Source: an uncultured Pseudomonadota bacterium (GTDB lineage Bacteria; Pseudomonadota; Alphaproteobacteria; RF32; CAG-239). Taken from it: a stretch of DNA of 64,000 nt. The stretch covers positions 11,981 through 75,980 of the forward strand of contig CASEYY010000015.1 in the NCBI GenBank assembly GCA_949292335.1, given 5' to 3'. Below, piece after piece: positions 26,411 to 59,535 of the stretch; position 1 is the stretch's first letter; every line of letters begins with the position of its first letter. A program made the translations under genes and the position numbers. The notes beneath the pieces were generated by a model. The model was given only the letters and a program-made list of their open reading frames with translations. It was not told the DNA's origin and ran no database searches.

Positions 26411-26552
26411 AGAAACCTCTTTTCATAACAATTAATCTGAGGCGATTATATATAAAGTGCAAAAATAGACAACAACGGATTTAAAAAAACACCAAAAATT
26501 AACAATTAGCGATTATAACAAGCAATATATATGTGTATAAGGAGGAGTATTT

Positions 26553-37263: not shown

Positions 37264-37272
37264 GAGGAATAA

Positions 37273-39044: not shown

Positions 39045-39576
39045 AATAATTAACATTATGGTGATTATGACAGCTATGCTTATAAGTAGTTCTGTGGCGA
39101 GCTACGCAAAATCTCAGGTAAAAGGGGATCCTGAGCTTTTGTGGCTGTCGCCGCTCGGAGATTCTGATATTGAAGACAACAGCTACTATCGTTGCCGACT
39201 TGCCAGATTGATAAATCCCGGTAGTGGTCAATCAACCACGGCCACGCAAAACAAGTATGATGTGATGTCCAATTATGTTTCCAACCTCTATGCTCAATCC
39301 ATAAAAATTTCGGCATACATAGAGAAAGAAGAAAAAAAAGCATCTTCTTCATCTACCGGTACCGACAATGAAATAGCAATTCTTGAAAAAGAAATAGTCC
39401 AAAGGATGGCCGACATATCTCGTCGTTTGAACATAATTAATTCATTTGAAGCCGGCATAGTCATGCTTGATGCTTTGGATGAGTTAGACAGTCTGCCTGC
39501 CGGTACATATTCATCATTTCGGGCCTTATCAGATGGAAGATATGAATATGTCACAGATTGTGAAGTGCTAAAGTAA
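39034..39576 (+). CDS. Small secreted protein, unknown function
   Basis: Start taken at ATG 39034, with GGAGAAAG upstream. Signal peptide MLGKIINIMVIMTAMLISSSVASYA. About 180 aa. Weak resemblance to the 37273 product. Confidence 0.5.
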   Translation: MLGKIINIMVIMTAMLISSSVASYAKSQVKGDPELLWLSPLGDSDIEDNSYYRCRLARLINPGSGQSTTATQNKYDVMSNYVSNLYAQSIKISAYIEKEEKKASSSSTGTDNEIAILEKEIVQRMADISRRLNIINSFEAGIVMLDALDELDSLPAGTYSSFRALSDGRYEYVTDCEVLK

Positions 39577-39589
39577 TGGAGTAAAAAAT

Positions 39590-40963: not shown

Positions 40964-40973
40964 GAGAAAAGAG

Positions 40974-43900: not shown

Positions 43901-44813
43901 CATAGGTTGCCACGACGAAGCATTTTCTCGCGGTGGTATAATGCCTTGTGTAGTTGATGGCTATCGCGAAGTATTAGATATCAATACCAGCGGCAACTAC
44001 CGATCTCGCAAAGATTTATCCAAGAGTTCATTGCCGCGTTGCATACAGGTTAAAGCAAAGAATGGCAAACTGTACCATAGTATGTACGATTCCAAAGTCG
44101 ATTTAGGGTTAAACACCAGCGGGGTAGAAAAACCCGGATGCGAATACAGCGAGCTTGGGATGATATTAGAAGCCGATAAAAAAAATAATCTTAAAATCAG
44201 AAAACGGCTGTATAATACCTATTCTGATTTGCTAGCCAACGAGGATAGTGCCAAACTGACCAATGCCAAGAAAAATAAGATATCGCTTGGTAACCATGCC
44301 TCTATTTCGCGTAACCAAATCGGAGACTTTTTGCGGCATGTTGAAAATGAAAAGCTTCAAAAAGAGAATTTGGAAGAATATCAGCAAAGATATGACAAGG
44401 ATATGGAAAATCTGGTTGCATCGCTTGAAGAATATGGGTTTTCTCCCACCAAAGATTTTGATTTAAGAAACGAAAGCGACTATAATCTTGCGGTAAATAA
44501 ACTAAAGGAGATTGAAAAACAAAAAATAGCCTCGGCGGCAGAGGTTATTTCGGCAACAGAAGAAGAAACGGAAGACAACGCTCCAGTTGAAGAGAAAATA
44601 AATAACTTAAAAACATTGATATATGTAATGGAGCAAGATAAAAATTATGTAATGAAAGTGTCTTCGGTAACGGCAGATATTGAAGACATAAATGCCGAGA
44701 TTAAGAAGGCCGAAGCAGATAACGCAGCTGTAGATAAGTATAAAAACAGTTTAAAAGAACAAGAGGGCGATTATACTGATCCTACCGAGCCCTACTGTGC
44801 AAATTATTGGTAA
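40974..44813 (+). CDS. Giant (1279 aa) secreted protein, unknown function
   Basis: Signal peptide (LIILFSLAPRGVYS|Q) and no further TM segments. It mixes helical and globular regions, and the C-terminus ends ...PYCANYW. Confidence 0.5.
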   Translation: MRKLFAYLLIILFSLAPRGVYSQMPWDFVYHAAPVSITLDIPEEVTQVAGNLQSTVNQSQQIILQGKADISNLQSAATTTFDNIKSGAILEVDGVPGLSKSTYCNRDINYMTVRKMARDMRKALMTYKSKQVNDVNEKIEQRNSFYINNIYAIYVASKIMQQDVEKEIKASIELATSCAEGDGELCKYPSSNNGGNNEVLFTYGKTLEAYDSVVRIWESVAALKARLKAVQMMMKIEPQVLEDKTDTTSANYDRRGKSRDYAYLISQSFPLAFAQVSYNSVSGSLSDIEAASVMQNNESMRLVKQTVEFVAPEEADNEHPLVAAEDKLAALDGLSAAETDVTTAMNVHNMVRQVKEYRKAAEELIKMQDDYNESLQRLKLSEQCAIKYLGHYFSNPVTVWSGVSLGDNVNRHDLRKGISAWAIDAYDTAKAAETTMVEAEDVPQISLDSEELTALSDDPDMQQSEEAGQNIDVSLSKSQQETSQDEGRKSDMMSWQIGAEAAKMLAQEPKKWGNPNNNKMIWTDTKSFYGQYLQRKYENIKEYLKQYTKEDVLAIVVSRLQGKNQDISDTKYQQNIRSIQQEAAAKVAQNQKDSSAALSQYSGSMKSTLDSLEKQREALVAKMDSVNAKISASSNEISDMRAVTQDTALQELDSKVNAKVVYPDAGSTVIPTSNEKIIGTDALNKAAKSNITDNTDDSKIKTLNSSISSNKKILSKYEDELASLDDKIAEAKLAMQESAANSMDKKADEVEKIKANVATAVAESSEDYAKDVKKNLKATLKEKAEDNPAIDPLITLMSAEAAAKRSLNALYEQVDIVVDDSYNKLMAMGDSLYLPSSHSKVVAIHNEMISKLKALTLAYSLSGIIEIKNVAVYAKLLATDSGTESEGFFVGATPKARDMKAPYAIPDYSLPPVREVFHFDSTDFGGIKPTGKGLEKRSITAAEFLNYGGEVPQIWQDMLKQNAFIETDFKLKDALDIGCHDEAFSRGGIMPCVVDGYREVLDINTSGNYRSRKDLSKSSLPRCIQVKAKNGKLYHSMYDSKVDLGLNTSGVEKPGCEYSELGMILEADKKNNLKIRKRLYNTYSDLLANEDSAKLTNAKKNKISLGNHASISRNQIGDFLRHVENEKLQKENLEEYQQRYDKDMENLVASLEEYGFSPTKDFDLRNESDYNLAVNKLKEIEKQKIASAAEVISATEEETEDNAPVEEKINNLKTLIYVMEQDKNYVMKVSSVTADIEDINAEIKKAEADNAAVDKYKNSLKEQEGDYTDPTEPYCANYW

Positions 44814-44828: not shown

Positions 44829-45584
44829 ATGGAAACCAGACAGCTTTCGGGCGGTACCAAGACCCTAGCAATAGAAGGCAACGCCAAAGCTCCGCAATAT
44901 ATAAATGAATTGGAAGAAGAGCAAAGTACTTTTCGCCAAGTGTATTACTTGTGGGTTTCGCGTTTTTTTATAGTTATAGCAACCATATCAATGATGTTTT
45001 TTGTTATGGCGTCACTAGCGTTATTCAGACTTGCTCCGATGGTTGAGGTTGAGCCTTTTTTACTGATAAACCAGAGTGAATCGGAAAATATTGTCAGGAA
45101 TGAGGCCGTTTCGCAAGATATGACCTCAAAAGACAAACTTCTTGAAATGTTTATCCGGCAATATGTAATTCTCCGCAACACCATAATTAACGATCCGGTT
45201 GAGATGCGTAGTCGCTGGATGGGAGGCGGAATGTTGAACTATCTTTCATCTCCAGAGGTCTATAATGAATTTGGTAATTCGACCAAGCAAGTTTGGGAGA
45301 ATATATTTAAGCAAACATTAGTAAGAGAAGTCGAAATTATTTCCGTTACCCGCCAAGGCGGAAAGAGATCGGCGGTGTGGAAGGTTGATTTTAAGACATA
45401 CGACCTTTACAATGAGCAAGGTAAAACACAAGCACAACAAGAGACTACCTTGCGTGTAAGATATTGGACCTCATCCATCACGGCGTATTTTATTCCCGAA
45501 AGAGCATTTGTGGCAACCCGTTTGATAAATCCGCTCGGCTTTACGGTAACCCGTTACTCTCAGACCGAAGTCGAAATATTCTAA
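44829..45584 (+). CDS. virB8: VirB8-like protein (copy a)
   Basis: Bitopic. The TM is followed by LAPMVEVEPFLL, then FIRQYVILRNT, and the C-terminus is INPLGFTVTRYSQTEVE. All three are typical VirB8 landmarks. Confidence 0.8.
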   Translation: METRQLSGGTKTLAIEGNAKAPQYINELEEEQSTFRQVYYLWVSRFFIVIATISMMFFVMASLALFRLAPMVEVEPFLLINQSESENIVRNEAVSQDMTSKDKLLEMFIRQYVILRNTIINDPVEMRSRWMGGGMLNYLSSPEVYNEFGNSTKQVWENIFKQTLVREVEIISVTRQGGKRSAVWKVDFKTYDLYNEQGKTQAQQETTLRVRYWTSSITAYFIPERAFVATRLINPLGFTVTRYSQTEVEIF

Positions 45585-45688: not shown

Positions 45689-45877
45689 ATGAATAATCGA
45701 ATTAAGCTGTTGATATTGTTTGGTTTGCTAGCTCTCTCCGGCTGCTACGGGTCATACTATGAGCCGGAGCCGGTAGGTATCGGTACCGGTGCCGATGAAT
45801 TGAAATTATCGCCCTGTGCCTGTATGGAGATAGAACTGCCTAAAAACCTGCCGGATTGGTTTGTTGCAACAATTTAG
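45689..45877 (+). CDS. Small lipoprotein, VirB7-like by position
   Basis: 62 aa with lipobox LALSGC, located between two virB8 genes and upstream of virB9. Confidence 0.45.
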   Translation: MNNRIKLLILFGLLALSGCYGSYYEPEPVGIGTGADELKLSPCACMEIELPKNLPDWFVATI

Positions 45878-45894: not shown

Positions 45895-46629
45895 GTGGAC
45901 GGAATAGAAGGAAACAGACCGCAACCTAGACTTATCGGCAATCAAAACGCCCCCAGACGCCCTGCGTCCAAGAAATCGGTACGCGATGAAGTGTTTGTGG
46001 CTAATATTGCCGAAAAGAGATATTTGTGGACGGCACGTGCATTTGCCGTAATTACAGCGTTTAGTCTGTGCTGCAACATCGTTTTGATACTGGCAATTCT
46101 GCAGGTTGTTCCGCTATACCGCATTGAGCCGTTCTTGCTTACTTTTCAAAATCGTTCCGAACAAGTTTATAATATTCAGCCGATAACCACTGAGCTTAGA
46201 AATCGTAAGGCGATTACCGAAGTCTTTGTTCGAGAGTATGTTTTGTTGAGAAGTACTTTCAGCAGTGATGTCGCCGAGGTTGAGGCCAGATGGATGCCGG
46301 GAGGTCCGATACAGGAGATGTCGGATAATCGAGTTTATCAAGATTTTTTGGATAATGTAGCCAAGCGAGCGGTAGATATCATAAAAAATCAAGGTATGGA
46401 GCGAAGTGTAAAAATACTTTCGGTTAATGAGCTCACGGACGGAGTATGGCAAGTTGAATATGAGACCAGAGATATGTATCCGTCTTCGGCAGAGCCGGAG
46501 ATAGGTTATTGGACGGCCTCTCTTAATGTCGGATATCGTCGCAAGAGTGTTAAATATGGCGACAGGTTGAAAAATCCGGTTGGGTTTACGGTTTATAGAT
46601 ATGCGTTGAGCCGCAATAAAGTAGGGTAG
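45895..46629 (+). CDS. virB8: VirB8-like protein (copy b)
   Basis: GTG start with AAGGGAG upstream. The TM is followed by VVPLYRIEPFLL, then FVREYVLLRST, and the C-terminus contains NPVGFTVYRYALS. Confidence 0.8.
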   Translation: MDGIEGNRPQPRLIGNQNAPRRPASKKSVRDEVFVANIAEKRYLWTARAFAVITAFSLCCNIVLILAILQVVPLYRIEPFLLTFQNRSEQVYNIQPITTELRNRKAITEVFVREYVLLRSTFSSDVAEVEARWMPGGPIQEMSDNRVYQDFLDNVAKRAVDIIKNQGMERSVKILSVNELTDGVWQVEYETRDMYPSSAEPEIGYWTASLNVGYRRKSVKYGDRLKNPVGFTVYRYALSRNKVG

Positions 46630-46636: not shown

Positions 46637-48211
46637 GTGTCGAAAAATATAAAAATAAAATTTTTGTTGTCAGTATTGTCGTTGTTGGTTGCTTTCGAAG
46701 CTAAATCTCAGGTAGACCAACAGATGATGGATGCCAGTGCCGAACAGGCTCAGGGCAATTATACGCCGATGAACCTAAATTATGCCGGCTTTAATTCTTT
46801 GGGTATGACACAAGCGGCGTGGCTTGATCCTTTGCAAAATCTCGGAGAGGGGCAAAGCAAGCCGGCATATTCGAAATATTACTGGACTCCGGATCTGGTT
46901 TTGCCGATAAGAGTACGCGAAGGAATGATTACCATGATTAACTTTCCTTCATGGGAGTTGATCGAAGATATTTTTATTGGCGACAGTGCAACTTTTGACG
47001 GCCAGATATCCGGTCCGTCCACCCTTTTACTTTATCCCAGAAAAGGTTCCAATGTCGGCGTTGATACCAACATAATTGTTTTCGGCCGTTCCGGCAACAG
47101 ATATGTGTTTTATGTGAAATCGGAGGCGGTTAATACCGAAAGGCTCACCAATGCAATAATTGATATAGAGGTTGTTGACGGGCAGGGAAATGGTGCAAAC
47201 GGAAATCTTCCGTCCGGCGGTGTCATGGGTTCGGCCAATGGTGGCTTGGCGGCATCAGGTAATAAATCCTTAGCCTCGACCTATACCCGAAGGAATCAAG
47301 ACAGTGATTGGATTAAGAGTATTCCGGTTGATCCAAGCGATTTCAGATTTGACTTGGAAGTCTATGTTCCCAATCCAGATGATGTGGTTATTGCCCCCGA
47401 GAGAGTATGGAGAGATAATATCTTTACATATATTGACTTAGGTAAAAAGGCTTTGAATATGACGCAAAGACCGGTTGTCAGTATGATCGTTGAGAGAGTT
47501 GAGGTTCCGGTAGGTTTCCGCACCAAAGGCCCGGACAACAGACTGATTATTGTAGAGGGCATTGGCGATATGGTTTTGCGCAATGGTAAAAGACTTATTT
47601 GCATAAAGATGCGTCGCTCCGATGAAAGCGGACTGGAGTACGCTATTAATTCTGCAGATTATCTGCCGCCGAAATGGGAAGTTTCACCGGCAATACCCAA
47701 TTCACAGACCATGGGTTATGGCAACAATATTAATTCGACTCCGCTGCAAGTCGGCGGCCAGCTTGATATTCAAGCCGGACAGAGCCAGATTATCGTTCCC
47801 GAATATACCAGATCCGGTCAAAACGGGATGAACGGCGGTAATATAGCAGACAGCTTTGATTATTCAAAAATGCAGAGGATAAGTAACAGTGGAGCATCAT
47901 CAGTACCGCAGCCAAACTACACTTACGGTACCGGCATAGTTTCGGGCGATAACTCCAATATCTCCATTGAGCTCGGAGCAAACTCAAATGTTAACGATCT
48001 TGAAACATTATGGGATAAGTTGTCCTCTCAATACAGCGACATTTTGGGTGGTTTTTCGCCGTTTTTCTCAGTTGATGCTCCGGCAGATGGTCAAGGTAAG
48101 GAACTGTTCCATCTTCGTGTAGGACCGGTTAAAGACTTAAATGCCGGCGATAAAATATGCGGGGAGCTAGGTCGCAACGGAGTATTCTGCAGCGTAGTAA
48201 GGACCCAATAA
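46637..48211 (+). CDS. virB9: VirB9-like protein with C-terminal SPOR-like domain
   Basis: GTG start and a signal peptide. VirB9 N-domain: IRVREGMITMINFPSWELIEDIFIGDSATFDG...TNIIVFGRSGNRYVFYVKSE. C-terminal domain: VEVPVGFRTKG. Tail: ...LFHLRVGPVKDLNAGDKICGELGRNGVFCSVV, which resembles the FtsN-type SPOR. Confidence 0.8.
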   Translation: MSKNIKIKFLLSVLSLLVAFEAKSQVDQQMMDASAEQAQGNYTPMNLNYAGFNSLGMTQAAWLDPLQNLGEGQSKPAYSKYYWTPDLVLPIRVREGMITMINFPSWELIEDIFIGDSATFDGQISGPSTLLLYPRKGSNVGVDTNIIVFGRSGNRYVFYVKSEAVNTERLTNAIIDIEVVDGQGNGANGNLPSGGVMGSANGGLAASGNKSLASTYTRRNQDSDWIKSIPVDPSDFRFDLEVYVPNPDDVVIAPERVWRDNIFTYIDLGKKALNMTQRPVVSMIVERVEVPVGFRTKGPDNRLIIVEGIGDMVLRNGKRLICIKMRRSDESGLEYAINSADYLPPKWEVSPAIPNSQTMGYGNNINSTPLQVGGQLDIQAGQSQIIVPEYTRSGQNGMNGGNIADSFDYSKMQRISNSGASSVPQPNYTYGTGIVSGDNSNISIELGANSNVNDLETLWDKLSSQYSDILGGFSPFFSVDAPADGQGKELFHLRVGPVKDLNAGDKICGELGRNGVFCSVVRTQ

Positions 48212-48218: not shown

Positions 48219-51200
48219 ATGAGCAAAGAGCCGTTAACACATTCCGAAAAGTATGTCAAAAAGACCAATACCATAATTTTGATGATAGGTATTGCCTCCC
48301 TGCTGATATTCATTTTTGGGTTGTTACTTTTGTTAAACAGCGGTGAGAGCATAGATACATACGAAGAGCCCGTATTTACGGATAATGCGGATGTATTCGG
48401 GGCGATTCCCACAACGACGCCTACGCAGAGTATAGAGTTTTCCACCATGGAAGGAGAAACTCCGCTTACCACCACCCCCGATCCGGTTCCGATTGGAGAA
48501 GTAGTATTGGGTACCGAGGCTAAAAATGTTTTAACACTCGGAACCAACGGTAAGGCCGCAATCAAAATAGATTCCGTATCTTTGGCCGATCCACCGGCAG
48601 CAGGTTTTACCTTTACCGATCGTTGCACCGGAATGACTTTGGAAGGAGATAAGACCTGCCATATAACGATGAGTTGGGTGCCTGTAGTTGCCGGCAATGT
48701 ACAAAATAATTTTATTATTTCATGGCACGAGGTTAACCTCGGAAACTCCAGTATAAAAGCGGCCAAAGTTCCGGTCACCGGTAATGCCGTGACCAAAGAA
48801 GATTGTACCTATTGCGAGACCGCTCCCGGCAGTGTGAGTGCCACGGATAAAAACGCCAAGGGAGTTCGCTATGCCATAGGTCCTGATGGCAAGATTATAG
48901 GAATTATAGACGAAGACGGTTTTGTCAGAGATGCCAACGGCAACATAATCGGAAAGGTAGGTCCTGATGGTCTGATTGTTGACAAGGACGGCAATGTGAT
49001 AGGTGTAGCGGAAAACCGCCGAGCCGTGTACGACGAGTTTGGTAATTTAATCGGCTATGTCAATCCGGATGGCTCGGTTGTCGATTTGGAAGGAAATGTC
49101 ATCGGCCGCGTTCTACCGGATGGTACGGTAGTTGACAAAGACGGTAAAGTTATAGGTCGAGCCGTTGAAACAGGTTATGTCTACGATGAAAACGGCAACA
49201 TAATCGGCCGCGTTCTGCCAGACGGAACGGTTGTCGACGAGAATGGCAATGTCATTGGCCGTGTGATGCCAGATGGAACGGTTGTTGATTTGAATGGTAA
49301 TGTTATTGGTCGCGTGACACAACCTGGACGCGTAGCCTTGGATGAAAACGGTAATGTTTTGGGCGTAGTATTGCCCGACGGGACGGTTGTTGACGCTAAC
49401 GGCAATGCAATAGGTTATGTCGATGCCAACGGCAACATAATCAAAAAGTCTTCGCCCCTTGACGGCAAAAAAGTAAGAGTTGCCTACGATGCCAACGGCA
49501 ATATTATAGGCTATGTTGATGAAAACGGCAATCTTTTGGATGCCAACGGCAATGTTATCGGCAAGATGCTTCCCGACGGTACAATAGTTAATCTTGACGG
49601 AGAGGTAATCGGCTATGCCGGAGAGGAAATTATTTTTGATTCGGCGACCAATGTTTTGGGGCGGTTGGTCATGTTTGACAAGATAGCTATTACACCGCAG
49701 GGGACATTACTCGGGACATTGCAAAACGACGGCAGCATAAAAAATGATAAAGATCAGGTTGTCGGCAGGTCTTTGCCTAACGGACTGGTCAAGGATCCTA
49801 ACGGAGCCAAAGTCATTGCCAAGATGGTTCGTGCCGGAATGATAATAGGATATGGTTGCAATCAAATTGGTTATTTGGATAAAGATGGCAAGATAAAAAA
49901 AGGCAACGAAGAAACTAATTACAAAATCACTCCCGAGGGTGTAGTTTTAAGTTCAGAGGGTCGCTATATCGGAGAAACTTTGAAAATTGGCCGCGTTTTT
50001 GACAACAACTGCAATCTGCTTGGAACCGTTGATAATTCTGGAATTGTAAAGGATTTAAACAACCGATATGTTGGTTGCGTCAATCCTGACGGCAGTGTGC
50101 TTAACGAACGCGGTGAATTTATCGGAGCCGTAGGAAAGAGCGGAGCGGCGGTTGACTTGGATGGCAGGTATATGGGTAAAGTCAGCATGGATAATATGGT
50201 AGTAAACGATGCCAAACTTCCGGTCGGATGCGTAGGTCTTTTAGGAGATGTATTCAATACCAAAGGAATATATATCGGCCGGGTTTTAGGAGAAAACTAC
50301 GTTTATACTCCTACCGGAGAATACATTAACAGAGTTGATGATAAAGCACAGGTTCGCATATATGGTAAACCTTCGGCGAGGTTGACTGCCGGAAATTTTG
50401 TTTTGGACGAGAATGGCAAGATACTGGGAACAGCGGTAGCGGCCAAGGCTTCGGTTTCAAATTCCGGCGGCAATCTAATCGGACGATTGTTTCCTGATGG
50501 ACAAGTCTATGACAATAAAGGCGTTGCACAGGGAAATATTAGAAACGGAGGCTTAAACAGCTACAATAATGTTAACGGAGCACTTTTGCCACGAGGAGAA
50601 GTTGTTGACATCAAAGGTGATATTGTCGGTACGGCTACAGACGACGGAACTGTTTTTAGTCGATATGGCGATACCCTGGGTAAGGTTAATGCCAAAGGTG
50701 AGTTTTTTAATATGAAAGGAGAGTATCAAGGCGGAATAGTAAGGAGGGGTGCCGCGATAGGTTATGACGGTTCATATATCGGCTATGCAGTTTCTGACGG
50801 CAAAGTAATAAGCCTTGAGGGAAAAAATGTTGCTCAGGTGACTCATGATAAAAAAGTCGTAAATTCGGAGGGGGAAGTCATAGGAGAAGTAATACCCGAA
50901 GGTATAATGTTGGATGCTCTGGGAAATTACAAGGGGTATTTGAATTCTCTCGGTGATGTTTTGGATCCGTCCGGCAAAATAATAACAGCCATATTACCCG
51001 GTGGCGGTACGGATAAAAATCTCCATATACTTCATTCCGGATTTGCGGTTGATTTTGGAGGTAATGTTATCGGGTCGGTATCTCCCGACGGCTCGGTTAC
51101 CGATTTTGCAGGCGTCATATTGGGCAAGGTTTTGTCTGATAATAATATTATCGGGGTCTCCGGAAAGATTATCGGAGAGGTAGTAAGCGGAGATATAGTA

Positions 51201-51524
51201 ATATCAAATGATGACAAAGTTGTGGGTTATGTAAATTTTGATGGAACAATTACCGGTAAAGATGCTAGTATAATCGGCAGGATGTTGTCGGGGGGACTTG
51301 CTATTGATTTGAACGACAGGATATTGGGAAAAATCTACAAGATCGGAGCAACAATACTGGGCAACGACGGCAAGTATAAAGGTCGGTTGTCTTATGACGG
51401 AACGGTAGTCGATAATAAAGGAGAAAATATTGGCTACATAAAGAGCAACGGGTCGTTTATAGACTTAGATAAAAATGTTTCCGGTTATGTTTTGGGCGAA
51501 GTTGCCAAAAACCAGAGGAATTAA
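48219..51524 (+). CDS. 1101-aa membrane-anchored protein of ~17-aa PDGxVVDxxGNVIGxV repeats
   Basis: N-terminal TM (IILMIGIASLLIFIFGLLLLL), then a ~130-aa beta-sandwich-like segment (VVLGTEAKNVLTLGTNG...CTGMTLEGDKTCHITMSWVPVVAG), then ~870 aa of degenerate repeats. Confidence 0.6.
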   Translation: MSKEPLTHSEKYVKKTNTIILMIGIASLLIFIFGLLLLLNSGESIDTYEEPVFTDNADVFGAIPTTTPTQSIEFSTMEGETPLTTTPDPVPIGEVVLGTEAKNVLTLGTNGKAAIKIDSVSLADPPAAGFTFTDRCTGMTLEGDKTCHITMSWVPVVAGNVQNNFIISWHEVNLGNSSIKAAKVPVTGNAVTKEDCTYCETAPGSVSATDKNAKGVRYAIGPDGKIIGIIDEDGFVRDANGNIIGKVGPDGLIVDKDGNVIGVAENRRAVYDEFGNLIGYVNPDGSVVDLEGNVIGRVLPDGTVVDKDGKVIGRAVETGYVYDENGNIIGRVLPDGTVVDENGNVIGRVMPDGTVVDLNGNVIGRVTQPGRVALDENGNVLGVVLPDGTVVDANGNAIGYVDANGNIIKKSSPLDGKKVRVAYDANGNIIGYVDENGNLLDANGNVIGKMLPDGTIVNLDGEVIGYAGEEIIFDSATNVLGRLVMFDKIAITPQGTLLGTLQNDGSIKNDKDQVVGRSLPNGLVKDPNGAKVIAKMVRAGMIIGYGCNQIGYLDKDGKIKKGNEETNYKITPEGVVLSSEGRYIGETLKIGRVFDNNCNLLGTVDNSGIVKDLNNRYVGCVNPDGSVLNERGEFIGAVGKSGAAVDLDGRYMGKVSMDNMVVNDAKLPVGCVGLLGDVFNTKGIYIGRVLGENYVYTPTGEYINRVDDKAQVRIYGKPSARLTAGNFVLDENGKILGTAVAAKASVSNSGGNLIGRLFPDGQVYDNKGVAQGNIRNGGLNSYNNVNGALLPRGEVVDIKGDIVGTATDDGTVFSRYGDTLGKVNAKGEFFNMKGEYQGGIVRRGAAIGYDGSYIGYAVSDGKVISLEGKNVAQVTHDKKVVNSEGEVIGEVIPEGIMLDALGNYKGYLNSLGDVLDPSGKIITAILPGGGTDKNLHILHSGFAVDFGGNVIGSVSPDGSVTDFAGVILGKVLSDNNIIGVSGKIIGEVVSGDIVISNDDKVVGYVNFDGTITGKDASIIGRMLSGGLAIDLNDRILGKIYKIGATILGNDGKYKGRLSYDGTVVDNKGENIGYIKSNGSFIDLDKNVSGYVLGEVAKNQRN

Positions 51525-51526
51525 AT

Positions 51527-54500
51527 ATGGGATTAATGCAAACGAAAGGATTACGAAATTTATTTTTCAGTATTGCAGCCGGTGTGTTGTCGGCGGCGAT
51601 TCTGGTTTTTCCGGCATTTTCCCAAGAAATAACGGCGATAGATTTTAATGGCGTCGTATTAGGTAAAGTAATTCCCGATGGTAAAGTAGTTAGCCTTGAC
51701 AATAAGTTGTTGGGTAACATCACCGCGGACAGCTTGATACTCGATTCTGACGGAAAGATTATCGGCGGTGTTGTTCCTCAGGGTGTTGCCATAGGTAATG
51801 ACGCCAGATTTTTAGGCAAAGTAAACAGTGACGGCAGTGTCAGAAGTTCCTCGGGACAGGTTGTCGGCAAAACTCTTCCCAACGGTCTGGTTGTTAACGA
51901 ATATTTTGATATTTTGGGACAAGTAGTATTTCCCGGCTTGGTATATAATGATGCCGGCCAAATATCCGGTCGTATAACCGGTGACGGACTGTATGCCAAT
52001 TTAAGCGGTCAACAAATCGGTATAGTTACGCCCGATGGCTACGCCTATCGCAAAGTCGGAAATGACTACTTGCTTGATGGTCGTTTAATATCCTCTCGTA
52101 TGGTTATATCACTAAACGGAGATTTTATCGGCAGTGTTGTTCCCGGGGGCGAGGTTACGGATTTCAATTCTGCCGTAATAGGTCATTTGCGGGCCAATGG
52201 TTTTGTATACAACAATGAAGGGGTGGTTATCGGTCGTATAGTTAACAGCGGCTACGCTTTTGACGATAAGGGATTTTATATTGGTTTTGTCAGCTATAAC
52301 GGAGATATTATAGACAATAATAAGTCCGTAGGGAAAATACGAGCAGACGGCTATGTAACCGACAGCAAAGGTAATATCAGCGGTCGAGCGGAAAGTTTTT
52401 CGGCAACCGCGACCGATCTTAACGGCAGGTATTTAGGGCGTTTGCTGCCGCAAGGCAATATAGCCAGAGGAGACAAATTCAGCGGATTGGTTGCGGCCAG
52501 AGGCATAGTAACCGATGGTTCCGGAGCAGTTGTCGGAAAGATTATATCCACCGGTCCGGTTTTTGATTTTAAGGGAGCTCTGGTTGGTCATGCCCTAAGT
52601 AACGGCGGGGTTATTTCTTTAAGCGGGACATCAATCGGCTATGTGGTAGGTAGGTATGCATATAATTTGTCCGGTCGGATGATAGGTGCCGTTTCTGATC
52701 CGCAAATGGTTTATTCGGGGGATGGAAAATTTCTGGGTGTCAGCGGAATATCCTCTAAAATAAAAAGCAACGAGAGCTCGTTTTCGGTTTCACCGCAAGG
52801 TTATGTATTTTCCGAGGACGGCAGTTTGGTCGGCCAAGCACTGCCCTCACGAGCATTTTATACCCCGTTCGGAAGTGTCTCGTCATACCTTGGTTTTGAC
52901 GGAAAGGCTTATAGTTCTAAGGGAGCAGAACTCGGCAAGGTCATAGGCACTGGCTATGTTCTAAACCCGCAAAATCAACTGATAGCCTCAGCCATCAAAG
53001 ACGATGTTGCCGTTGATGGCAAAGGCGATATGTTGGGAAGCATAAGCTATCATAATTACATTTTGGATCGTTCTTTCAGCGAAATAGGCAAAATATTACC
53101 CGACATGAGTGTTGCAAAAACTCAATCCGGCAATTTTAATTATATGCCGAAGACGGGATTTGCCTACAATACCGGTACGGTTCTGGATTTCAGCGGTAAT
53201 TTTATAGGATACACCGATATTGCCGGTAATGTCAGGAATTCTGCCGGTTCTAAGGTTGGTAAGGTCGTTGACGGAATGCTGAGTACGGATAACAACGGAA
53301 TAGTCACCGGCTATTTATCCGCTAAAGGTGTTTCCGTAAACGATAAATGCGAAACTTTGGGAGCCGTTTCATTTAACGGCAATATCTACAACTACAGGGA
53401 TGTATATGTCGGAAAACTTTTAGCCAATGATTTTGTAATAAGTGACAGCGGAGCAGTTGTCGGATATAAGGTCGCTCAGTCACCGGTCGTTGATTTTAAC
53501 GGCCGCACGATAGGCTTTGTGTCCAATGACGGCAAGGTCTATAACGAAACCGGCGGTCAGATAGGTTGTTTGGACTATAACAAACAACTTTACAATGAAA
53601 ATAAGGCACTTATAGGTAAAGCGGTAGAATTTGATTCGGTAATTGACTTTGCCGGTAACATAATCGGGTACAGCACCGTAAATGGTTTGATAGTTGATGA
53701 AGACGATGAGCTGATAGGCTACCAGCAACCAAATGATAATATTAATTCCAATGCCGGACTTCCTTTGGGTAATTTATTTAAATACAAAATTGCCTTTGAT
53801 ATGGATAATAAATATATCGGCAGGGTTTCCACGCAAGGCGAGGTTATCTCGGCATCGGGAGATATTTTGGGTCGAGTAGACTTTGACGGTTATGTTGTTT
53901 CCGCTGACAAAAAAATTGGTTACGCACTTTATGATTTTTACATCTACGATAATTCCGGCAAGGTTATAGGCCTTATCAACCGCAGCGGAGAAGCCTTTGG
54001 TTTTAACAATCAAAGTTTGGGCAGATACGATTTAGGCTTTGTCATAAAAGGGGAAGAAGTTGTAGGCCGCGGCAGTCGCAACTACAATATCCGAGATAAT
54101 ACCAACTTGGTTTTGGGGAGATTGTCTTTATCTGGTGAGGTCTTTGATAATTTAGGTAATGTAATCGGAACCCTCAATAGCAACGGCAATATTGTAAACG
54201 CGGACGGAAATTTCATAGTCAAAGCCGGTCCTTTACAGTATTATGATTTCAACAAAGACAAGTTGTTAGTACCGGTAGATGAGGCAGAGGCCAAAGCAAA
54301 AGCCGAAGCGGAAGCCCGAGCCCGAGCAGAGGCAGAGGCCAAAGCCAAAGCCGAGGCGGAAGCCCGAGCCAAGGCCGAAGCGGAAGCCAATAGGAGTTGG
54401 TTTGACAAATCTTCGATACTCGATTCACTTAAGCAGCCCAAAGAGGAAGAAGTATCACCGGCACTTAAAATGCTGGAAGATTCCAAATATTACAAATCTT

Positions 54501-55873
54501 TGGGAATAGCCCTGACTCCCGATGGAGATTATTTAGGTGAAATTTTGGAAAACGATACGGTAATTGATGATAAAGGTAACATTATCGGCTATCGTACGCC
54601 TGACGGATTGATAATAGATAGTGAAGGTAATCTGATAGGTACCGAAGATTTCGGAGACAAAGAAGATGACGGCAAAGTATTTGTACCGGCCGGCAGTTTT
54701 GGTCCTGGCGGAGCCTATGGCGTAGGCGAAGGCAGTGCCGCCAACTTAGGTCCCGGAGGAGGCTACGGTCCCGGAGAGCGATATGATCCTACCCGCAAAG
54801 CAGCATTGGACGCGGCCATGCAAGAGAGAAGACAAAACATAAGTGTCGGGCATATAGGGTCAAATGTCAGAAAAGAAGCTTTTGACGGTTATCAAAAAGA
54901 TTGGTCGGAGCAAGGAATTCCGAAATCCATCTCTTCTTGGCGTGTAGATATGAGCGAGATGATATTCTCAGACAAGCCCATACCGGCAGTAATAGCACGT
55001 GCAATAGATACCAATAATCCGGCTCCGATTACGGCATATGTGGAGAGAAATGTTTACGCGGAAGAAGGAAGAAACATAATAATTCCGGCCGGCTCGCGAA
55101 TGATAGGAAGTTTTGGTAGTATCACGGCTGCCGCGGAAGCCACCTCGGAATCCGCTCGTGTTCAAATTAGTTGGGAGAGGCTTATCAGACCGGACGGTTC
55201 AATCTTTGTATTCAGCGGACAAACTGCGGATGCACAAGGTAGAGCAGGAGCGTTAGGTTATGTAGACCAGCAATTATTCAAGAAATATACCTTGCCGGTA
55301 GTTACGACGGTACTGTCATCCGGAGCATCGTATTTTATAGCGTCGGCAGACGATGCCGCTGGCGAGATAGAGACATCTAAGCAGCAGGCGGCCAACGATG
55401 CCAGACAAAACTTTTTGGACGACATGGAAGAGTTGTTTGACGATATCTTGGCCGACAAGACCGATGTAAAAGCCATGACATATATTCCGGCCGGAACGCG
55501 TATAATTGTCTACCCGAACACCGATTTATGGTTGCGGAGTGTAGAGCGAGATGAAGAAGAATCGCAGAAATATCAGAAACCCGAAATTTTGATTGATGAT
55601 GTCAAGACCGACCAAGCCAGTCGCCAGAGACAACGTGAGGATGTAGCCAAAGCCTCGAGCACCCAAGTTGTTTACGATCCTGATGATGCAAATGTAGAAG
55701 CAACCGGAGCGGATACACAGCCGCTGTTGATAGATGATGCCCCCAAGAAGAACAAGACATTAGTACCACCCCCGCCGCCGAGTTCTTCCGGCAACATAGC
55801 GACGACATCGCAAGCAACGGCTGGTAGCCAGGCGGCAGAAGGTGAAGGCGGCAGCGTTCCGGCACTGTTTTAG
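51527..55873 (+). CDS. virB10: Giant VirB10 homolog (1448 aa) with N-terminal repeat array
   Basis: N-terminal anchor, ~850 aa of the same repeat family, and an (AEAKAK/AEAEAR) helix. The C-terminal VirB10/TrbI domain reads IIPAGSRMIGSFG...ARVQISWERLIRPDGSIFVFSGQTADAQGRAGALGYVDQQ...YIPAGTRIIVYPNTDL. A Pro/Ser-rich tail follows. Confidence 0.8.
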   Translation: MGLMQTKGLRNLFFSIAAGVLSAAILVFPAFSQEITAIDFNGVVLGKVIPDGKVVSLDNKLLGNITADSLILDSDGKIIGGVVPQGVAIGNDARFLGKVNSDGSVRSSSGQVVGKTLPNGLVVNEYFDILGQVVFPGLVYNDAGQISGRITGDGLYANLSGQQIGIVTPDGYAYRKVGNDYLLDGRLISSRMVISLNGDFIGSVVPGGEVTDFNSAVIGHLRANGFVYNNEGVVIGRIVNSGYAFDDKGFYIGFVSYNGDIIDNNKSVGKIRADGYVTDSKGNISGRAESFSATATDLNGRYLGRLLPQGNIARGDKFSGLVAARGIVTDGSGAVVGKIISTGPVFDFKGALVGHALSNGGVISLSGTSIGYVVGRYAYNLSGRMIGAVSDPQMVYSGDGKFLGVSGISSKIKSNESSFSVSPQGYVFSEDGSLVGQALPSRAFYTPFGSVSSYLGFDGKAYSSKGAELGKVIGTGYVLNPQNQLIASAIKDDVAVDGKGDMLGSISYHNYILDRSFSEIGKILPDMSVAKTQSGNFNYMPKTGFAYNTGTVLDFSGNFIGYTDIAGNVRNSAGSKVGKVVDGMLSTDNNGIVTGYLSAKGVSVNDKCETLGAVSFNGNIYNYRDVYVGKLLANDFVISDSGAVVGYKVAQSPVVDFNGRTIGFVSNDGKVYNETGGQIGCLDYNKQLYNENKALIGKAVEFDSVIDFAGNIIGYSTVNGLIVDEDDELIGYQQPNDNINSNAGLPLGNLFKYKIAFDMDNKYIGRVSTQGEVISASGDILGRVDFDGYVVSADKKIGYALYDFYIYDNSGKVIGLINRSGEAFGFNNQSLGRYDLGFVIKGEEVVGRGSRNYNIRDNTNLVLGRLSLSGEVFDNLGNVIGTLNSNGNIVNADGNFIVKAGPLQYYDFNKDKLLVPVDEAEAKAKAEAEARARAEAEAKAKAEAEARAKAEAEANRSWFDKSSILDSLKQPKEEEVSPALKMLEDSKYYKSLGIALTPDGDYLGEILENDTVIDDKGNIIGYRTPDGLIIDSEGNLIGTEDFGDKEDDGKVFVPAGSFGPGGAYGVGEGSAANLGPGGGYGPGERYDPTRKAALDAAMQERRQNISVGHIGSNVRKEAFDGYQKDWSEQGIPKSISSWRVDMSEMIFSDKPIPAVIARAIDTNNPAPITAYVERNVYAEEGRNIIIPAGSRMIGSFGSITAAAEATSESARVQISWERLIRPDGSIFVFSGQTADAQGRAGALGYVDQQLFKKYTLPVVTTVLSSGASYFIASADDAAGEIETSKQQAANDARQNFLDDMEELFDDILADKTDVKAMTYIPAGTRIIVYPNTDLWLRSVERDEEESQKYQKPEILIDDVKTDQASRQRQREDVAKASSTQVVYDPDDANVEATGADTQPLLIDDAPKKNKTLVPPPPPSSSGNIATTSQATAGSQAAEGEGGSVPALF

Positions 55874-55885: not shown

Positions 55886-56854
55886 ATGAGTTTTACTGTT
55901 TTGGAATCAATCTTGAGACCGCTGTCATATTGGTATGAACAAGATGGTATAGAAGAGTTGGCAATAAATCATGCCGGAGAGGTTTGGTTAAGACTTCGCG
56001 GCAAGAGAGCACATCCGTGGGCCTGTTACAAAGATGAAAAGCTAAGCAAGGAATACTTGACCGATTTGCTTTATATTATTGCCAATACTTACGAGCTGCC
56101 GTTTGATCCGATACAAGGAAACCCGGTTGTATATGCTACCATTCCTGGGGAGCATCGTTTTTCGGCAATATGCGGCAAAAATGTGATGTACGACAATGAT
56201 GATTTGACCGGAGGCATTGCATTGACCATCCGTATTCACGCCGATGATGTGTCTTTCGGGTTAGGCGATTACGGCTTAACGCAAGGAGGTCATTTACATA
56301 AAATAAATCCGCTTAAAGACATCAAAGAGCCGGAGGATCCGTACGAAAGGCTTTTGCTCAGCATCAGACGCGGAGACCACATATTGGTATCTGGTGCGAC
56401 TGCAACCGGAAAGACGACATTTTTAAACAATTTATTGAAGATATTAGACATCAACAAACGAATATTAACCATTGAAGATACACGAGAGCTGATAGTTCCC
56501 CACAAAAACAGAGTGCATATAACATTATCAAGAACGGAGCAAACCAATGCTCTTACATATGCCAAGGTGATTGACCTGGTAGTTCGTTTTACTCCAGATG
56601 CTATTATCGGAGGCGAGATATCCACGAGCAATGCCGGAGCAATATGGGAGTTGATGGGTTCCGGCCACGATAACTGTCTTGCCACCATTCACGCTGAGAG
56701 TTCGGAAGCAGCATATCAAGCGTTTACCGACAGAATTTTGCATACCTATCCAACGATAGATCGCAATAAAACCATAGAAGAAATGCGTCACAAATTAAGG
56801 GTAATTCAGATAAACCGAGACGGTAACCTTCGTGCGGTCACCGAAATAACCTAA
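55886..56854 (+). CDS. virB11: VirB11 ATPase
   Basis: Walker A VSGATATGKTTF, plus RILTIEDTRELI and GHDNCLATIHA (His box); 322 aa. Confidence 0.9.
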   Translation: MSFTVLESILRPLSYWYEQDGIEELAINHAGEVWLRLRGKRAHPWACYKDEKLSKEYLTDLLYIIANTYELPFDPIQGNPVVYATIPGEHRFSAICGKNVMYDNDDLTGGIALTIRIHADDVSFGLGDYGLTQGGHLHKINPLKDIKEPEDPYERLLLSIRRGDHILVSGATATGKTTFLNNLLKILDINKRILTIEDTRELIVPHKNRVHITLSRTEQTNALTYAKVIDLVVRFTPDAIIGGEISTSNAGAIWELMGSGHDNCLATIHAESSEAAYQAFTDRILHTYPTIDRNKTIEEMRHKLRVIQINRDGNLRAVTEIT

Positions 56855-56967: not shown

Positions 56968-59535
56968 ATGGTGACGGAAACCAACAGAACAACAGAGGCA
57001 AGAAGGAAGGCGTTGCGTAAGGGCGACGAAGATCCTGTTGTTGTAGCTCAAAGGTACCTCAACATATACCGCCAGATGCATATATTGAGCGGGGAAAGAC
57101 GCGAAGCATTCAACAAAATGCTGGTAGCCTTGTCGCCCGATGTAAAGAGCATATTCTCTACTCTTCCCGGCGGAGCGATGCTGCAAGATTATATAGATGA
57201 GCTTACCGGCACCAAGAGCGGGGAAGATGCGGATGATTTTACTCAGTCTCCCTCTCCCGGGGTTGAAACATATGTTCAGCCGCAAGCAACGGCAGGCACA
57301 CCGACGGCACCGATTGCGGCAGTAAGCGGGAAGATAAGCTTTGATAAAGAATTTTCGGCCGAATTCACCAAGATAATAGCCGGACTTTTGCAACAACAAG
57401 CCATCACTCAAAAAGAGAGTTTAGAGAAGGTTATCAAAGATCTTGGGGGCAGCGGAGGGACTTCGAGCGGAGAAAAAGCCGACATAAGTTTAGGTGAAAA
57501 TTTTGCCGCGGATCTCGCCAAGAGCCTTCATCCACTGATGCAATATCAGAGCCAACTCCAAAAAGAAAGTTTGGCTAAGTTGGTGCAGGATATAAGCAAA
57601 ACACAATTATATATAGCCAAAAACATTAAAGAAGGTTATAGCGAGCACCAGCAGGAATTTAAGGAGCTATGCAAAGTAATTGCGGCCAAAAGCTCTTCTG
57701 TTTCATCACCTGCCGGCGGAGAAAATATCAGCGGAATAGATATAAAAGAGCTTTTGCAGACGATATCCGATAATTATCTGAGCATAAGAGAAGACCAAAA
57801 CAAAGAAATAAAAGAGATATGCAATGCAATAACCGAAGGCTTGAAGTCTGGTCGGGATAATAGCTCGTCACCTTCGGAAATTAAAGAGCTTTGCAATGCG
57901 ATTATACAAAGCCAAAAGAGCTTGGGTCAATCGTTAAGCGGAATTAAATTAGCCGACGGAGCGGTCGCTGCCCCGATGCCCGTATATGATGACGGTACTA
58001 CGCAAAAACTTATAGAGGCGGTTATAGAAGGGCAAAAGCAAATAAATTTGCGGCTTGATAAAGTCGAAGAAATGTCTCTAAACAAAGCCAATGACAATAT
58101 CAATCTGATAGAAGCGTTTAAGGCCACGCAAGAAGAACTTTTTAAGAAGTTCGGCAACAATCGGCCAGATTTTACGGAAGGTTCGCAGGCAAGAGAAGAT
58201 AACAGCGAGAAACTGCTTAAGCTAATCAATGATTCACAGGAAAAATTAATTAAAGCGGTTATGTCCTCGGTTTCCGCCAATGGAAGCAATAAAACAGGAA
58301 ACGGCAACGAAACGGTAGCTTCGGTTATGGTTTCGGACAACCAAGAAGCCATTGAGAAATTAATAAATAAAATATCTTCACTTCAAGCCTCCAATGAAAA
58401 AAATCTTGAAAAGGCCATCACCAAAGCGATTGAAGCACAGGGAGAAATTTTCGGCAAATTAAGTAATCGCAAGAACGAGGAGTTGATAGAAACGTTTACC
58501 AGAGGGGTTAAAGAGATATTAACACCCATGCTGGTAACGCAGATTAAGCAAGAAGCAGTTGCCGACATATCAAGGAGTGATCGATTTGCCAGTCCGGCAG
58601 TTGAAAAGAACATATACGAGCCCGCGGCAACGGAAACGGAGCTTAACGGTGATGTGTATGCACAAGAACCGTATGTTCCTGCCGATAATGCTGGTTTAGC
58701 TTCGGATACTACGGCAACAAAGAAAAAGAAGAAAAGTATAGCCGCGGCGGATAGCACAGCAGAGCCACCGGCATCGGCAGTCGAGCCTTTATCTCCTGAC
58801 GATGATTTCACTTTGCCGGCAGAAGATATCGAATATGATGATTTGCCGGAGGTTCCGGCGGCAACGGACTTTGCTGACTATGAAGAACCCCAGACTACTG
58901 AGGGCGACGATTTTAGATACTCCGGGAACACGGATGAATTTGATGTTACTCCTGATGACGCAGTATCTGACGATAATACACCGCTTTCAAATGAGGCGGA
59001 GACAACATCGGAAGCAGCCGATTACTCCTTGTCACAGGCAGACAGTGTGACAGGTAATGATGAAACGGCAGACAGCACCGAGATTGCCCAAGCAGAGGCG
59101 GAGGATGTCAGTGATGATTCCGCAAATACCGGTTTTGATTGGGGCTTTAACACCCAAGATGAAAACAATTCCGATATTGCTGGTTCCAATATATTGATAT
59201 CCGATGATTCAACAGGTGAAGAGGCAAATGATTGGGGCTTCGGCTCTACAGACGAAACAGAGGATATTCAAGCAGATTCCGCCGATTACCCGCAAGCACA
59301 AGAAGATGAAATCTACTCTCCTGCGGATACGGCGGGTAACGATAATTCCGATCAGGATTGGGAATGGGTTTATGTTGAAGACGACGAAGCTGCGGCAGAT
59401 GAATATTCTACTGAGGAAGTAGCGGGGAGCGACATAGGTTTAAATCGGCAGGAAAACATTCCGCAAAAGCTCAAATTACAACAATTTGAAGAAGAAGATT
59501 TCGATCCGTACCAAAATAGTGTTCTAAAAGATTAA
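56968..59535 (+). CDS. 855-aa cytoplasmic-type protein with hyper-acidic C-terminal third, unknown function
   Basis: No signal peptide or TM segment. Internal EIKE(I/L)CNAI repeats. The last ~300 aa are dominated by D/E/T/S (…DDFTLPAEDIEYDDLPEVP…DWEWVYVEDDEAAADEYS…). Confidence 0.5.
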   Translation: MVTETNRTTEARRKALRKGDEDPVVVAQRYLNIYRQMHILSGERREAFNKMLVALSPDVKSIFSTLPGGAMLQDYIDELTGTKSGEDADDFTQSPSPGVETYVQPQATAGTPTAPIAAVSGKISFDKEFSAEFTKIIAGLLQQQAITQKESLEKVIKDLGGSGGTSSGEKADISLGENFAADLAKSLHPLMQYQSQLQKESLAKLVQDISKTQLYIAKNIKEGYSEHQQEFKELCKVIAAKSSSVSSPAGGENISGIDIKELLQTISDNYLSIREDQNKEIKEICNAITEGLKSGRDNSSSPSEIKELCNAIIQSQKSLGQSLSGIKLADGAVAAPMPVYDDGTTQKLIEAVIEGQKQINLRLDKVEEMSLNKANDNINLIEAFKATQEELFKKFGNNRPDFTEGSQAREDNSEKLLKLINDSQEKLIKAVMSSVSANGSNKTGNGNETVASVMVSDNQEAIEKLINKISSLQASNEKNLEKAITKAIEAQGEIFGKLSNRKNEELIETFTRGVKEILTPMLVTQIKQEAVADISRSDRFASPAVEKNIYEPAATETELNGDVYAQEPYVPADNAGLASDTTATKKKKKSIAAADSTAEPPASAVEPLSPDDDFTLPAEDIEYDDLPEVPAATDFADYEEPQTTEGDDFRYSGNTDEFDVTPDDAVSDDNTPLSNEAETTSEAADYSLSQADSVTGNDETADSTEIAQAEAEDVSDDSANTGFDWGFNTQDENNSDIAGSNILISDDSTGEEANDWGFGSTDETEDIQADSADYPQAQEDEIYSPADTAGNDNSDQDWEWVYVEDDEAAADEYSTEEVAGSDIGLNRQENIPQKLKLQQFEEEDFDPYQNSVLKD

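Follow-up and report, generated by a model that had tools for sequence, protein, structure and literature searches.

We analysed a stretch of 64,000 nucleotides (hereafter the window) from contig CASEYY010000015.1 of an uncultured alphaproteobacterium, and studied two adjacent genes in it, here called p1 and p2, which encode proteins of 1101 and 1448 amino acids with long arrays of a 17-residue repeat (Table 1). VirB10 is the subunit of type IV secretion systems (T4SSs) that joins the inner-membrane motor to the outer-membrane pore. With moderate confidence we propose that together they make up a single giant VirB10, belonging to a chromosomal T4SS of gut Alphaproteobacteria, and that its two halves dock onto each other and form a periplasmic scaffold.

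This reading is carried by relatives in which both halves form a single polypeptide. Searching 1.84 billion representatives with p2 residues 1040-1448 as query yielded proteins of 1498-2406 amino acids that combine a p1-type N-terminus, 17-residue arrays and a TrbI domain. A periodic signal at lag 17 is seen in all of these fused relatives, whose N-terminal regions show homology to residues 1-210 of p1 (5e-26 to 3e-4). One of them, P0258 (2201 amino acids, from a cluster of 141 members), is encoded on the chromosomal contig L083 in the order VirB8, a protein of 65 amino acids, VirB8, VirB9, P0258, VirB11. p1 is collinear with residues 1-1090 of P0258 (E = 1.7e-149) and p2 with residues 780-2102 (E = 6.8e-133). 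Because in this sister lineage a single gene stands where p1 and p2 stand here, with virB9 before it and virB11 behind it, we read p1 and p2 as a split VirB10. The preliminary description of this DNA had treated the 1101-residue membrane protein as a separate partner; the fused relatives, the collinearity and the tree described below make it the N-terminal half of the same VirB10. The bitopic topology of VirB10 on one polypeptide is not found in p2; it is found in p1 and p2 jointly and in the fused relatives.

The likely history of the split can be read from shorter relatives. Three proteins of ordinary length (P0302, P0315 and P0296; 577-611 amino acids) have an ASH-like domain and a TrbI domain and no repeats. 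P0296 is the TrbI/VirB10 protein of Microvirga tunisiensis (WP_152714064.1, 603 amino acids), with the ASH-like domain at residues 71-181. In a neighbour-joining tree of TrbI domains the VirB10s with repeats group together in one clade, in which the fused forms are basal and the split forms, including that of the window, make up one nested clade. This suggests that a fused form was split once. The ordinary ASH-bearing VirB10 is probably the ancestral state, and a likely course of events leads from an anchor-ASH-linker-TrbI protein, through expansion of a hairpin array between ASH and TrbI, to fission.

At the point of fission the two genes are closely joined. The start codon of p2 lies 2 nucleotides past the stop codon of p1, with a Shine-Dalgarno-like AGAGGA in the last p1 codons, and the genes are probably translationally coupled. 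In all 71 loci with both genes the distance from the p1 stop to the first mature p2 codon is 75-110 nucleotides, which leaves room just for the p2 leader. These gene pairs were measured by the lengths of open reading frames anchored on tblastn matches (strict regular-expression landmarks gave both genes in only 8 loci). Without exception, p1 is flanked by virB9 on one side and by the gene for the TrbI protein on the other.

The second gene encodes the pore half. In 68 p2 orthologues a variable basic and hydrophobic leader is followed by an invariant EITA(I/V)xF, and most leaders end in small-x-small and then Q, typically A-x-A before the Q. Both proteins had been described as beginning with a membrane anchor. 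For p2 this does not hold: residues 1-32 look like a Sec signal peptide that can be cleaved off, and p2 is therefore predicted to lack the inner-membrane anchor normal for VirB10. At the other end, the claim of a real VirB10 barrel behind the array is borne out. The TrbI family (PF03743) matches residues 1146-1336 (E = 1.7e-34, 119.7 bits, cut-off 35), and a family profile searched against solved structures recovers ComB10 (2bhv, 1.1e-25), CagY (8cb2, 8e-10), TrwE (7o3j), TraF (3jqo) and the Xanthomonas VirB10 (6gyb). Judged by these matches, p2 carries a genuine VirB10/TrbI domain in its C-terminal region. The array had also been thought to replace the usual VirB10 linker, which turned out otherwise, as a Gly/Pro-rich linker persists at residues 1039-1140. 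The columns of the three terminal hairpin units ahead of it are nearly invariant in the orthologue alignments A2 and A3, and the distance from SLGIALTPDG to GERYDP is 91 residues in 116 of 145 sequences. In the C-terminal tail P1445, L1447 and F1448 are nearly invariant.

The first gene encodes the anchor half. Its transmembrane helix gives a Kyte-Doolittle peak of 3.03 at residues 19-37 and is modelled by AlphaFold2 (AF2) as a helix over residues 9-39; residues 6-22 are the most conserved 17-residue window of the protein. The beta-sandwich that follows resembles ASH domains in Foldseek (HYDIN 2e6j, probability 1.0, TMt 0.69, root-mean-square deviation (rmsd) 3.0 Å; CEP192 6fvi, TMt 0.63). The Pfam ASH and NCBIfam choice_anch_D models match p1 weakly, under their cut-offs. 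Four cysteines are invariant in p1 orthologues, C136 and C147 within the ASH-like domain and C196 and C199 directly after it.

Both open reading frames were reported earlier to carry 17-residue repeats, and our measurements agree. Autocorrelation with BLOSUM62 scores, compared with 200 shuffles, gives peaks at lags 17, 34 and 51 for p1 220-1093 (z = 19.7) and p2 35-900 (z = 12.8), with the lag-17 peak present in each third of both arrays; the flanks p1 1-219 and p2 1040-1448 show no lag-17 peak. The repeats are real and far beyond chance. A 17-column hidden Markov model (HMM) built from 11 clear units recovered only 27 (p1) and 20 (p2) partial units, and since it was too insensitive we relied on autocorrelation for the periodicity. 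Dividing the lengths by the period gives about 51 units per array (874/17 in p1, 866/17 in p2), and p2 has three extra units at residues 991-1038. The motif [DN]xxGxx[VIL]G has 47 six-frame matches in the window, 42 of which fall within the p1 and p2 genes.

The arrays of the window are old. The example peptide of the preliminary description corresponds to p1 residues 297-364 (nucleotides 49107-49310), and its two DNA examples lie at 49101-49136 and 49203-49238, each coding for IGRVLPDGTVVD. Among the 11 best units the codons differ at 62% of the identical residues, and Tandem Repeats Finder reports a single 51-bp array at the DNA level in the window's hairpin arrays (49206-49317, 2.2 copies, 80%), located in the variable block of p1. 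Given this codon divergence and the one short DNA-level array, we conclude that the arrays have been kept at the protein level for a long time, and recent slippage is rejected for them. The earlier view of old repeats maintained at the protein level thus stands for the window. It has to be amended for the orthologues, which additionally hold young, length-variable repeat blocks; for these blocks recent slippage is accepted.

Each half combines a block of fixed length with one of variable length. In the p1-type sequences the distance from ITPxG to SNGSFID is 585-598 residues (26 of 26) and that from SNGSFID to the C-terminus is 26 residues, again in all 26. From CxxC to ITPxG the window's p1 has 295 residues, against a range of 295-761 over the 26 sequences, the window's included. 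For p2 the distance from EITAI to PLQYY is 866-871 residues in 144 of 145 p2-type sequences, the window's included, and exactly 870 in 118 of them. The spacer behind it, from PLQYY to SLGIALTPDG, measures 89-310 residues over the 145 sequences and is shortest in the window (89 residues). Here it resembles a coiled coil, with an EAKAKAEAEAR segment detected as a tandem array at 54281-54390 (+) and a weak TolA-like NCBIfam match at p2 919-955. In other orthologues the spacer gains near-perfect young repeats, and tandem repeats are evident in the DNA of locus L050. Some, for example P0090 and P0112, have a similar coiled coil together with hairpin repeats; others (P0013, P0059) have hairpin repeats only.

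Overall, the fixed blocks (about 35 and 51 hairpins) border the fission point and the variable blocks adjoin the anchor and the barrel. Many unit-specific residues are invariant among orthologues, and individual hairpins are therefore positionally orthologous. Conservation is high at the ends nearest the junction: p1 1085-1101 and p2 33-220 are among the most conserved segments, the latter covering the first ~190 mature residues and being the most conserved part of p2. The cytoplasmic tail of p1 belongs to this group as well.

The repeat unit had been supposed to form a beta-hairpin, and both the profiles and the models agree with this. Bflower_2 (PF21785) matches p1 in 8 stretches (1.2e-63, 212.3 bits) and p2 in 6 stretches (2.8e-55, 185.4 bits), with a cut-off of 38; both proteins also match DUF3659 (PF12396) and Bflower (PF21784) of Pfam. 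p1 furthermore scores above the cut-offs of RHS_repeat (PF05593; 4.5e-20, 72 bits, cut-off 22) and of the NCBIfam YD-repeat model TIGR01643 (6e-18, 64.6 bits, cut-off 15.8). For p2 the YD-repeat and RHS_repeat models of Pfam and NCBIfam give nothing at E below 0.01, and PF05593 is present in several p2 orthologues. The tip motif [DNEQ]xxG of beta-flower hairpins occurs in the units of p1 and p2. By its profile matches, then, the unit belongs to the catalogued YD / beta-flower / DUF3659 hairpin class with a [DN]xxG turn, close to the families guessed earlier. Neither of the two outcomes that would have refuted the preliminary description occurred: the family is catalogued, but in the literature found it is not described as a T4SS extension, and the C-terminus of p2 does score as TrbI.

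AF2 models of both proteins consist of hairpins throughout their arrays. For p1, modelled with 34 homologues, the mean predicted local distance difference test score (pLDDT) is 79.5 and the predicted template modelling score (pTM) 0.67; the model shows the transmembrane helix, the beta-sandwich at 83-191 and then 98 short strands, counted with DSSP. The Foldseek search with whole p1 was swamped by the ASH domain, and the p2 array (33-900) was modelled alone. With 69 homologues it reached a pLDDT of 93.0 and a pTM of 0.90, with 99 strands of 4.4 residues on average. The high pTM argues against beads on a string, and the p2 array is predicted to be one rigid body made entirely of beta-hairpins.

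In a Foldseek search of the PDB, the shells of Rhs, teneurin and TcB/TcC proteins (8qja, E = 8.9e-26, probability 0.97; 9ifo; 7pq5) came first for the p2 array, all with TMq and TMt of 0.04-0.10 and rmsd values of about 28-32 Å. In the model, the hairpin ribbon is locally YD-like, and its overall shape is not that of an Rhs cocoon. A DPxG[LWFIV] autoprotease motif was not found in p1 or p2, nor was a toxin family among Pfam and NCBIfam. Membership of the Rhs proteins was rejected on the low fold scores (TM 0.10 or less) and the lack of the autoprotease motif. If stretched out, a ribbon of 99 strands would measure ~475 Å at about 4.8 Å per strand. The rmsd of a superposition is at least the difference in radii of gyration, and such a length is incompatible with an rmsd near 29 Å to compact shells; we infer from this that the modelled ribbon must be coiled. 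The arrays run unbroken over 35-51 hairpins. A phmmer search of p1 against PDB sequences gave nothing useful, and among viral models no Foldseek probability exceeded 0.16.

Taken together, these results suggest the following arrangement. p1 would be anchored in the inner membrane by its single helix, with the short conserved tail in the cytoplasm and the ASH domain and arrays in the periplasm. p2 would be exported by Sec and lose its signal peptide, so that mature p2 is periplasmic. Its TrbI domain would assemble with VirB9 and the VirB7-like lipoprotein into the core complex at the outer membrane. The fixed blocks of p1 and p2 may then dock non-covalently and rebuild the VirB10 bridge from inner to outer membrane. 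Core complexes have roughly 14-fold symmetry (PMC9371333), and multiplied by that symmetry the fixed blocks would add up to a scaffold of very large size in the periplasm (a ring, cage or stalk), with the variable blocks beside each membrane acting as tethers. A more far-reaching version, in which the split is functional, p1 and p2 engaging and disengaging through their conserved hairpin blocks as an on-demand bridge, and these blocks building a megadalton periplasmic chamber of YD-like beta-ribbon of a kind not seen before, is speculative and in our estimate unlikely.

Several points weigh against the proposal of a split, docking VirB10. Docking is a deduction from the fission of the protein, the neighbouring position of the two genes and their sequence conservation. 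The neighbour-joining tree has no support values and includes fragments, and the matches of the p1 N-terminus to ordinary VirB10s were scored in a database of 150 sequences. A ruler of constant total length was considered and is unsupported, as the summed length of p1 and p2 ranges from 2514 to 3239 amino acids (standard deviation 160); the lengths of p1 and p2 do correlate negatively (rho = -0.51, p = 6e-6), a value confounded by phylogeny because the species are not independent. The AF2 scores leave rod, superhelix and shell undistinguished. Moreover, AF2 can be over-confident on repeats, and the repeat alignment may be partly out of register. Finally, VirD4, a relaxase and a polytopic VirB6 were not recognised in the scanned parts of the window.

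Other roles for the arrays have to be weighed as well. They might bind the cell wall, and instead of bridging the two membranes by contact of p1 with p2 they would then fix the very large machine to peptidoglycan or set its distance from the wall. The VirB9 of the operon indeed ends in a SPOR domain, a peptidoglycan-binding module, and an SLT transglycosylase is encoded at 4635-5369. However, no peptidoglycan-binding family of Pfam or NCBIfam scored on p1 or p2, and 35 + 51 hairpins of unvarying length, conserved one by one, suggest a defined architecture more than an array for generic binding. We give this explanation a small chance, and it would be compatible with a split VirB10. The extension of the arrays to the cell surface, as considered in the preliminary description, is improbable. 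Surface-exposed repeats could contact a host or target cell in the way proposed for CagY and DotG, with the variable blocks providing antigenic or functional variation, and the recombination-prone blocks of the orthologues do parallel the repeat variation of those two proteins (PMC6761968, PMC9371333). Against this, the arrays lie N-terminal to TrbI, and in solved structures the N-terminal parts of VirB10 are in the periplasmic I-layer with only the antenna helices outside (PMC9371333). Also p1 is tethered to the inner membrane, and the arrays are mostly fixed in length and conserved, unlike a surface antigen.

The shells found by Foldseek raise the question of whether the arrays form closed, Rhs-like containers that enclose an effector or toxin in the periplasmic part of the T4SS. 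The identity of these best p2 matches, the YD-repeat and RHS_repeat scores of p1 and the pTM of 0.90 over 868 residues, which suggests a compact body, would fit such a container. Judged by the Foldseek scores, however, every shell superposes as poorly as stated above; neither the autoprotease motif nor a toxin domain was found, and the 17-residue units with their short strands are smaller than the hairpins of Rhs proteins. We therefore judge a cargo shell very unlikely. It is more improbable again that p1 is an independent periplasmic or envelope protein which shares no more than the repeat type and the operon with p2, the fused forms being secondary fusions without functional meaning. Operon neighbours do sometimes fuse by chance, and what speaks for contact between p1 and p2 is indirect. 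Nevertheless, VirB10s of ordinary length in related bacteria begin with the tail-helix-ASH module of p1, the fused forms are basal in the TrbI tree, p2 has no normal VirB10 anchor, and the adjacency of p1 and p2 is strict (71 of 71 loci).

Compared with known systems, the split VirB10 shares single traits with several and combines them differently. CagY and DotG had been named before as VirB10s expanded by repeats of other types, and the literature concurs. CagY is a VirB10 homologue enlarged by repeats N-terminal to its VirB10-like C-terminal domain (PMC9371333), repeats that, as far as that paper relates an earlier study, are alpha-helical modules (Delahay 2008, as cited in PMC9371333). Their number can change by recombination, as in the variable blocks of p1 and p2 orthologues, but CagY is one polypeptide with alpha-helical repeats, whereas p1 and p2 are split, carry 17-residue beta-hairpins and have arrays mostly fixed in length. 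DotG/IcmE of Legionella and Coxiella has a TrbI C-terminus after a variable repeat middle and measures 1000 to >1500 amino acids (PMC6761968). The repeat region ahead of a C-terminal TrbI domain is shared with p2; in contrast, DotG has pentapeptide repeats, belongs to a type IVB secretion system and is a single anchored polypeptide, and no pentapeptide family scored on p1 or p2. With the Rhs/YD shells the common trait is a hairpin repeat with a YD-like motif, the differences being the global fold, the autoprotease and the toxin. Durairaj et al. (2023) introduced the beta-flowers as small barrels, each built of 4-6 hairpins whose tip reads [DNEQ]xxG, and noted that they are unlike solved structures; their paper describes no link to T4SSs (PMC10584680). 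The beta-flowers have the same hairpin unit and give the strongest HMM matches of p1 and p2, but are closed barrels of ~96-116 residues, whereas p1 and p2 have 35 to at least 51 continuous hairpins.

Nearer relatives show parts of the arrangement. The VirB10 of Microvirga tunisiensis has an ASH-like domain homologous to p1 83-191 and a related TrbI domain, but it is a single polypeptide without a hairpin array. In the rvh system of Rickettsia, RvhB10 is of ordinary size, and our literature search found no report of hairpin arrays in it. In this system virB8 is present twice, and a VirB7 candidate directly precedes the second virB8 (PMC2653234). The operon of the window shares the duplicated virB8 and the small lipoprotein before the second copy, its gene order resembles rvh, and the fused-type arrangement of L083 is chromosomal; in contrast, no equivalent of the five polytopic VirB6 paralogues known from rvh was recognised in the window. 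A literature search found no publication on a VirB10 with YD, Bflower or DUF3659 hairpin arrays, nor on secretion in RF32 or CAG-239. We regard the VirB10 of p1 and p2 as a new form of repeat-expanded VirB10, built from a known hairpin class whose occurrence in T4SSs is undescribed in the literature found.

Table 1. Position of p1, p2, their parts and the adjoining secretion genes in the window (nucleotide coordinates; aa, amino acids).
Feature	Coordinates	Strand	Basis
VirB8a	44829-45584	+	Pfam
62-aa lipoprotein, VirB7 candidate	45689-45877	+	lipobox LSGC, conserved SPCACM motif
VirB8b	45895-46629	+	Pfam
VirB9/CagX with C-terminal SPOR domain	46637-48211	+	Pfam: CagX 79-324, SPOR 440-522
p1, putative N-terminal half of split VirB10, 1101 aa	48219..51524	+	open reading frame; P0258 collinearity; position between virB9 and TrbI gene
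p1 1-39: Lys-rich cytoplasmic tail and single transmembrane helix	48219..48335	+	Kyte-Doolittle, AF2
p1 83-191: ASH/PapD-like beta-sandwich domain	48465..48791	+	Foldseek; weak sequence models
p1 ~217-490: canonical 17-aa units, species-variable length	48867..49688	+	CxxC-to-ITPxG spacing; pLDDT about 75
p1 491-1101: fixed old block, about 35 units, and constant tail	49689..51521	+	ITPxG-to-SNGSFID spacing; pLDDT about 85-92
p2, putative C-terminal half of split VirB10, 1448 aa	51527..55873	+	open reading frame; Bflower_2 and TrbI; P0258 collinearity
p2 1-32: Sec signal peptide, predicted cleavage between AFS and QE	51527..51622	+	leader pattern in 68 orthologues
p2 33-906: fixed-length array, about 51 hairpin units	51623..54244	+	EITAI-to-PLQYY spacing; AF2
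p2 907-990: variable spacer, here Ala/Glu/Lys coiled-coil-like and without hairpin repeats	54245..54496	+	PLQYY-to-SLGIALTPDG spacing
p2 991-1038: three conserved terminal hairpin units	54497..54640	+	regular-expression/HMM units at 1005-1038
p2 1039-1140: Gly/Pro-rich linker with conserved GERYDP motif	54641..54946	+	sequence; alignments A2, A3
p2 1146-1336: VirB10/TrbI domain	54962..55534	+	PF03743; NCBIfam ComB10 and VirB10 models
p2 1337-1448: acidic, then Pro-rich tail, ends in conserved SVPALF	55535..55870	+	sequence
VirB11-type ATPase directly downstream of p2	55886..56854	+	PF00437, E = 8.5e-22

The operon of the window runs in the order VirB2-like, a protein of 1424 amino acids, VirB4, six secreted proteins, VirB8, the VirB7 candidate, VirB8, VirB9, p1, p2 and VirB11. 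This order is kept in 74 of 82 loci, the remaining 8 being without upstream sequence, and VirB11 was found in 79 of the 82. The lipoprotein of 62 amino acids is likely VirB7; it is conserved between the virB8 copies of the fused-type L083 as well (7491-7688). As for VirB9, we know of no other member that combines CagX with a SPOR domain.

Relatives are common among gut bacteria. More than 1000 database proteins match each half, and a relative is present in at least 192 GTDB species representatives. The best 80 of these 192 genomes are mostly metagenome-assembled genomes of Alphaproteobacteria from gut or rumen, with humans, mice, deer, cattle, chickens and rabbits as sources. They are named, among others, 'Alphaproteobacteria bacterium', 'Proteobacteria bacterium CAG:495', 'uncultured Azospirillum sp.' and 'Candidatus Scatocola faecigallinarum'. 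NCBI taxonomy places Ca. Scatocola in Rhodospirillales; the GTDB order of the relatives' genomes we take to be RF32, in keeping with terms that occur together in PMC8035907. Existing annotations of the proteins read 'hypothetical protein', 'YD repeat-containing protein', 'DUF3659 domain-containing protein' or 'TrbI/VirB10 family protein'.

Some further genes of the operon and its surroundings deserve mention. The secreted protein of 1424 amino acids (28869-33143, +) directly follows the VirB2-like pilin gene and has a weak match to Borrelia P83/100 only. Between VirB4 and VirB8 lie six consecutive open reading frames (36103-44813, +; 386, 187, 402, 191, 457 and 1279 amino acids). Their N-termini resemble signal peptides, no family matches them convincingly, and none has more than one hydrophobic segment. 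Behind VirB11 follow a very acidic protein of 855 amino acids (56968-59535, +), without a family match and with weak or absent similarity in many related loci, and a protein of 229 amino acids (59612-60301, +) with ~7 tandem copies of QPRPQPQGQ at its C-terminus and likewise no family match. A type IVb pilus cluster (9920-20854, -) is found 7 kb upstream of the T4SS operon and comprises PilS/bundlin-like pilins, T2SSF, a T2SSE ATPase, PilO, a secretin and TcpQ. Also upstream of the secretion genes are a XerC/D-type tyrosine recombinase (23050-23952, -) and the SLT lytic transglycosylase mentioned above (-), a possible VirB1 equivalent. In L083 the VirB8-VirB11 genes form an islet (17599-26606) amid flagellar genes (FlaF, a FliI-type ATPase, FliJ, FlgH, FlgA) and housekeeping genes, apart from any VirB2/VirB4 genes and islet-like as in rvh systems.

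Summarizing, the only well-known forms of repeat-expanded VirB10 are, to our knowledge, CagY with its alpha-helical repeats and DotG with its pentapeptides. The proteins described here would represent a third, independent way of expansion, by roughly 1,700 residues of beta-hairpin array, and in one lineage VirB10 would be divided over two proteins, one with the anchor and the other with the pore part. If it is true that these halves re-associate, they would provide a natural test of whether trans-envelope signalling needs the covalent continuity of VirB10. At the same time the beta-flower / DUF3659 / YD hairpin class would gain a clear cellular setting.

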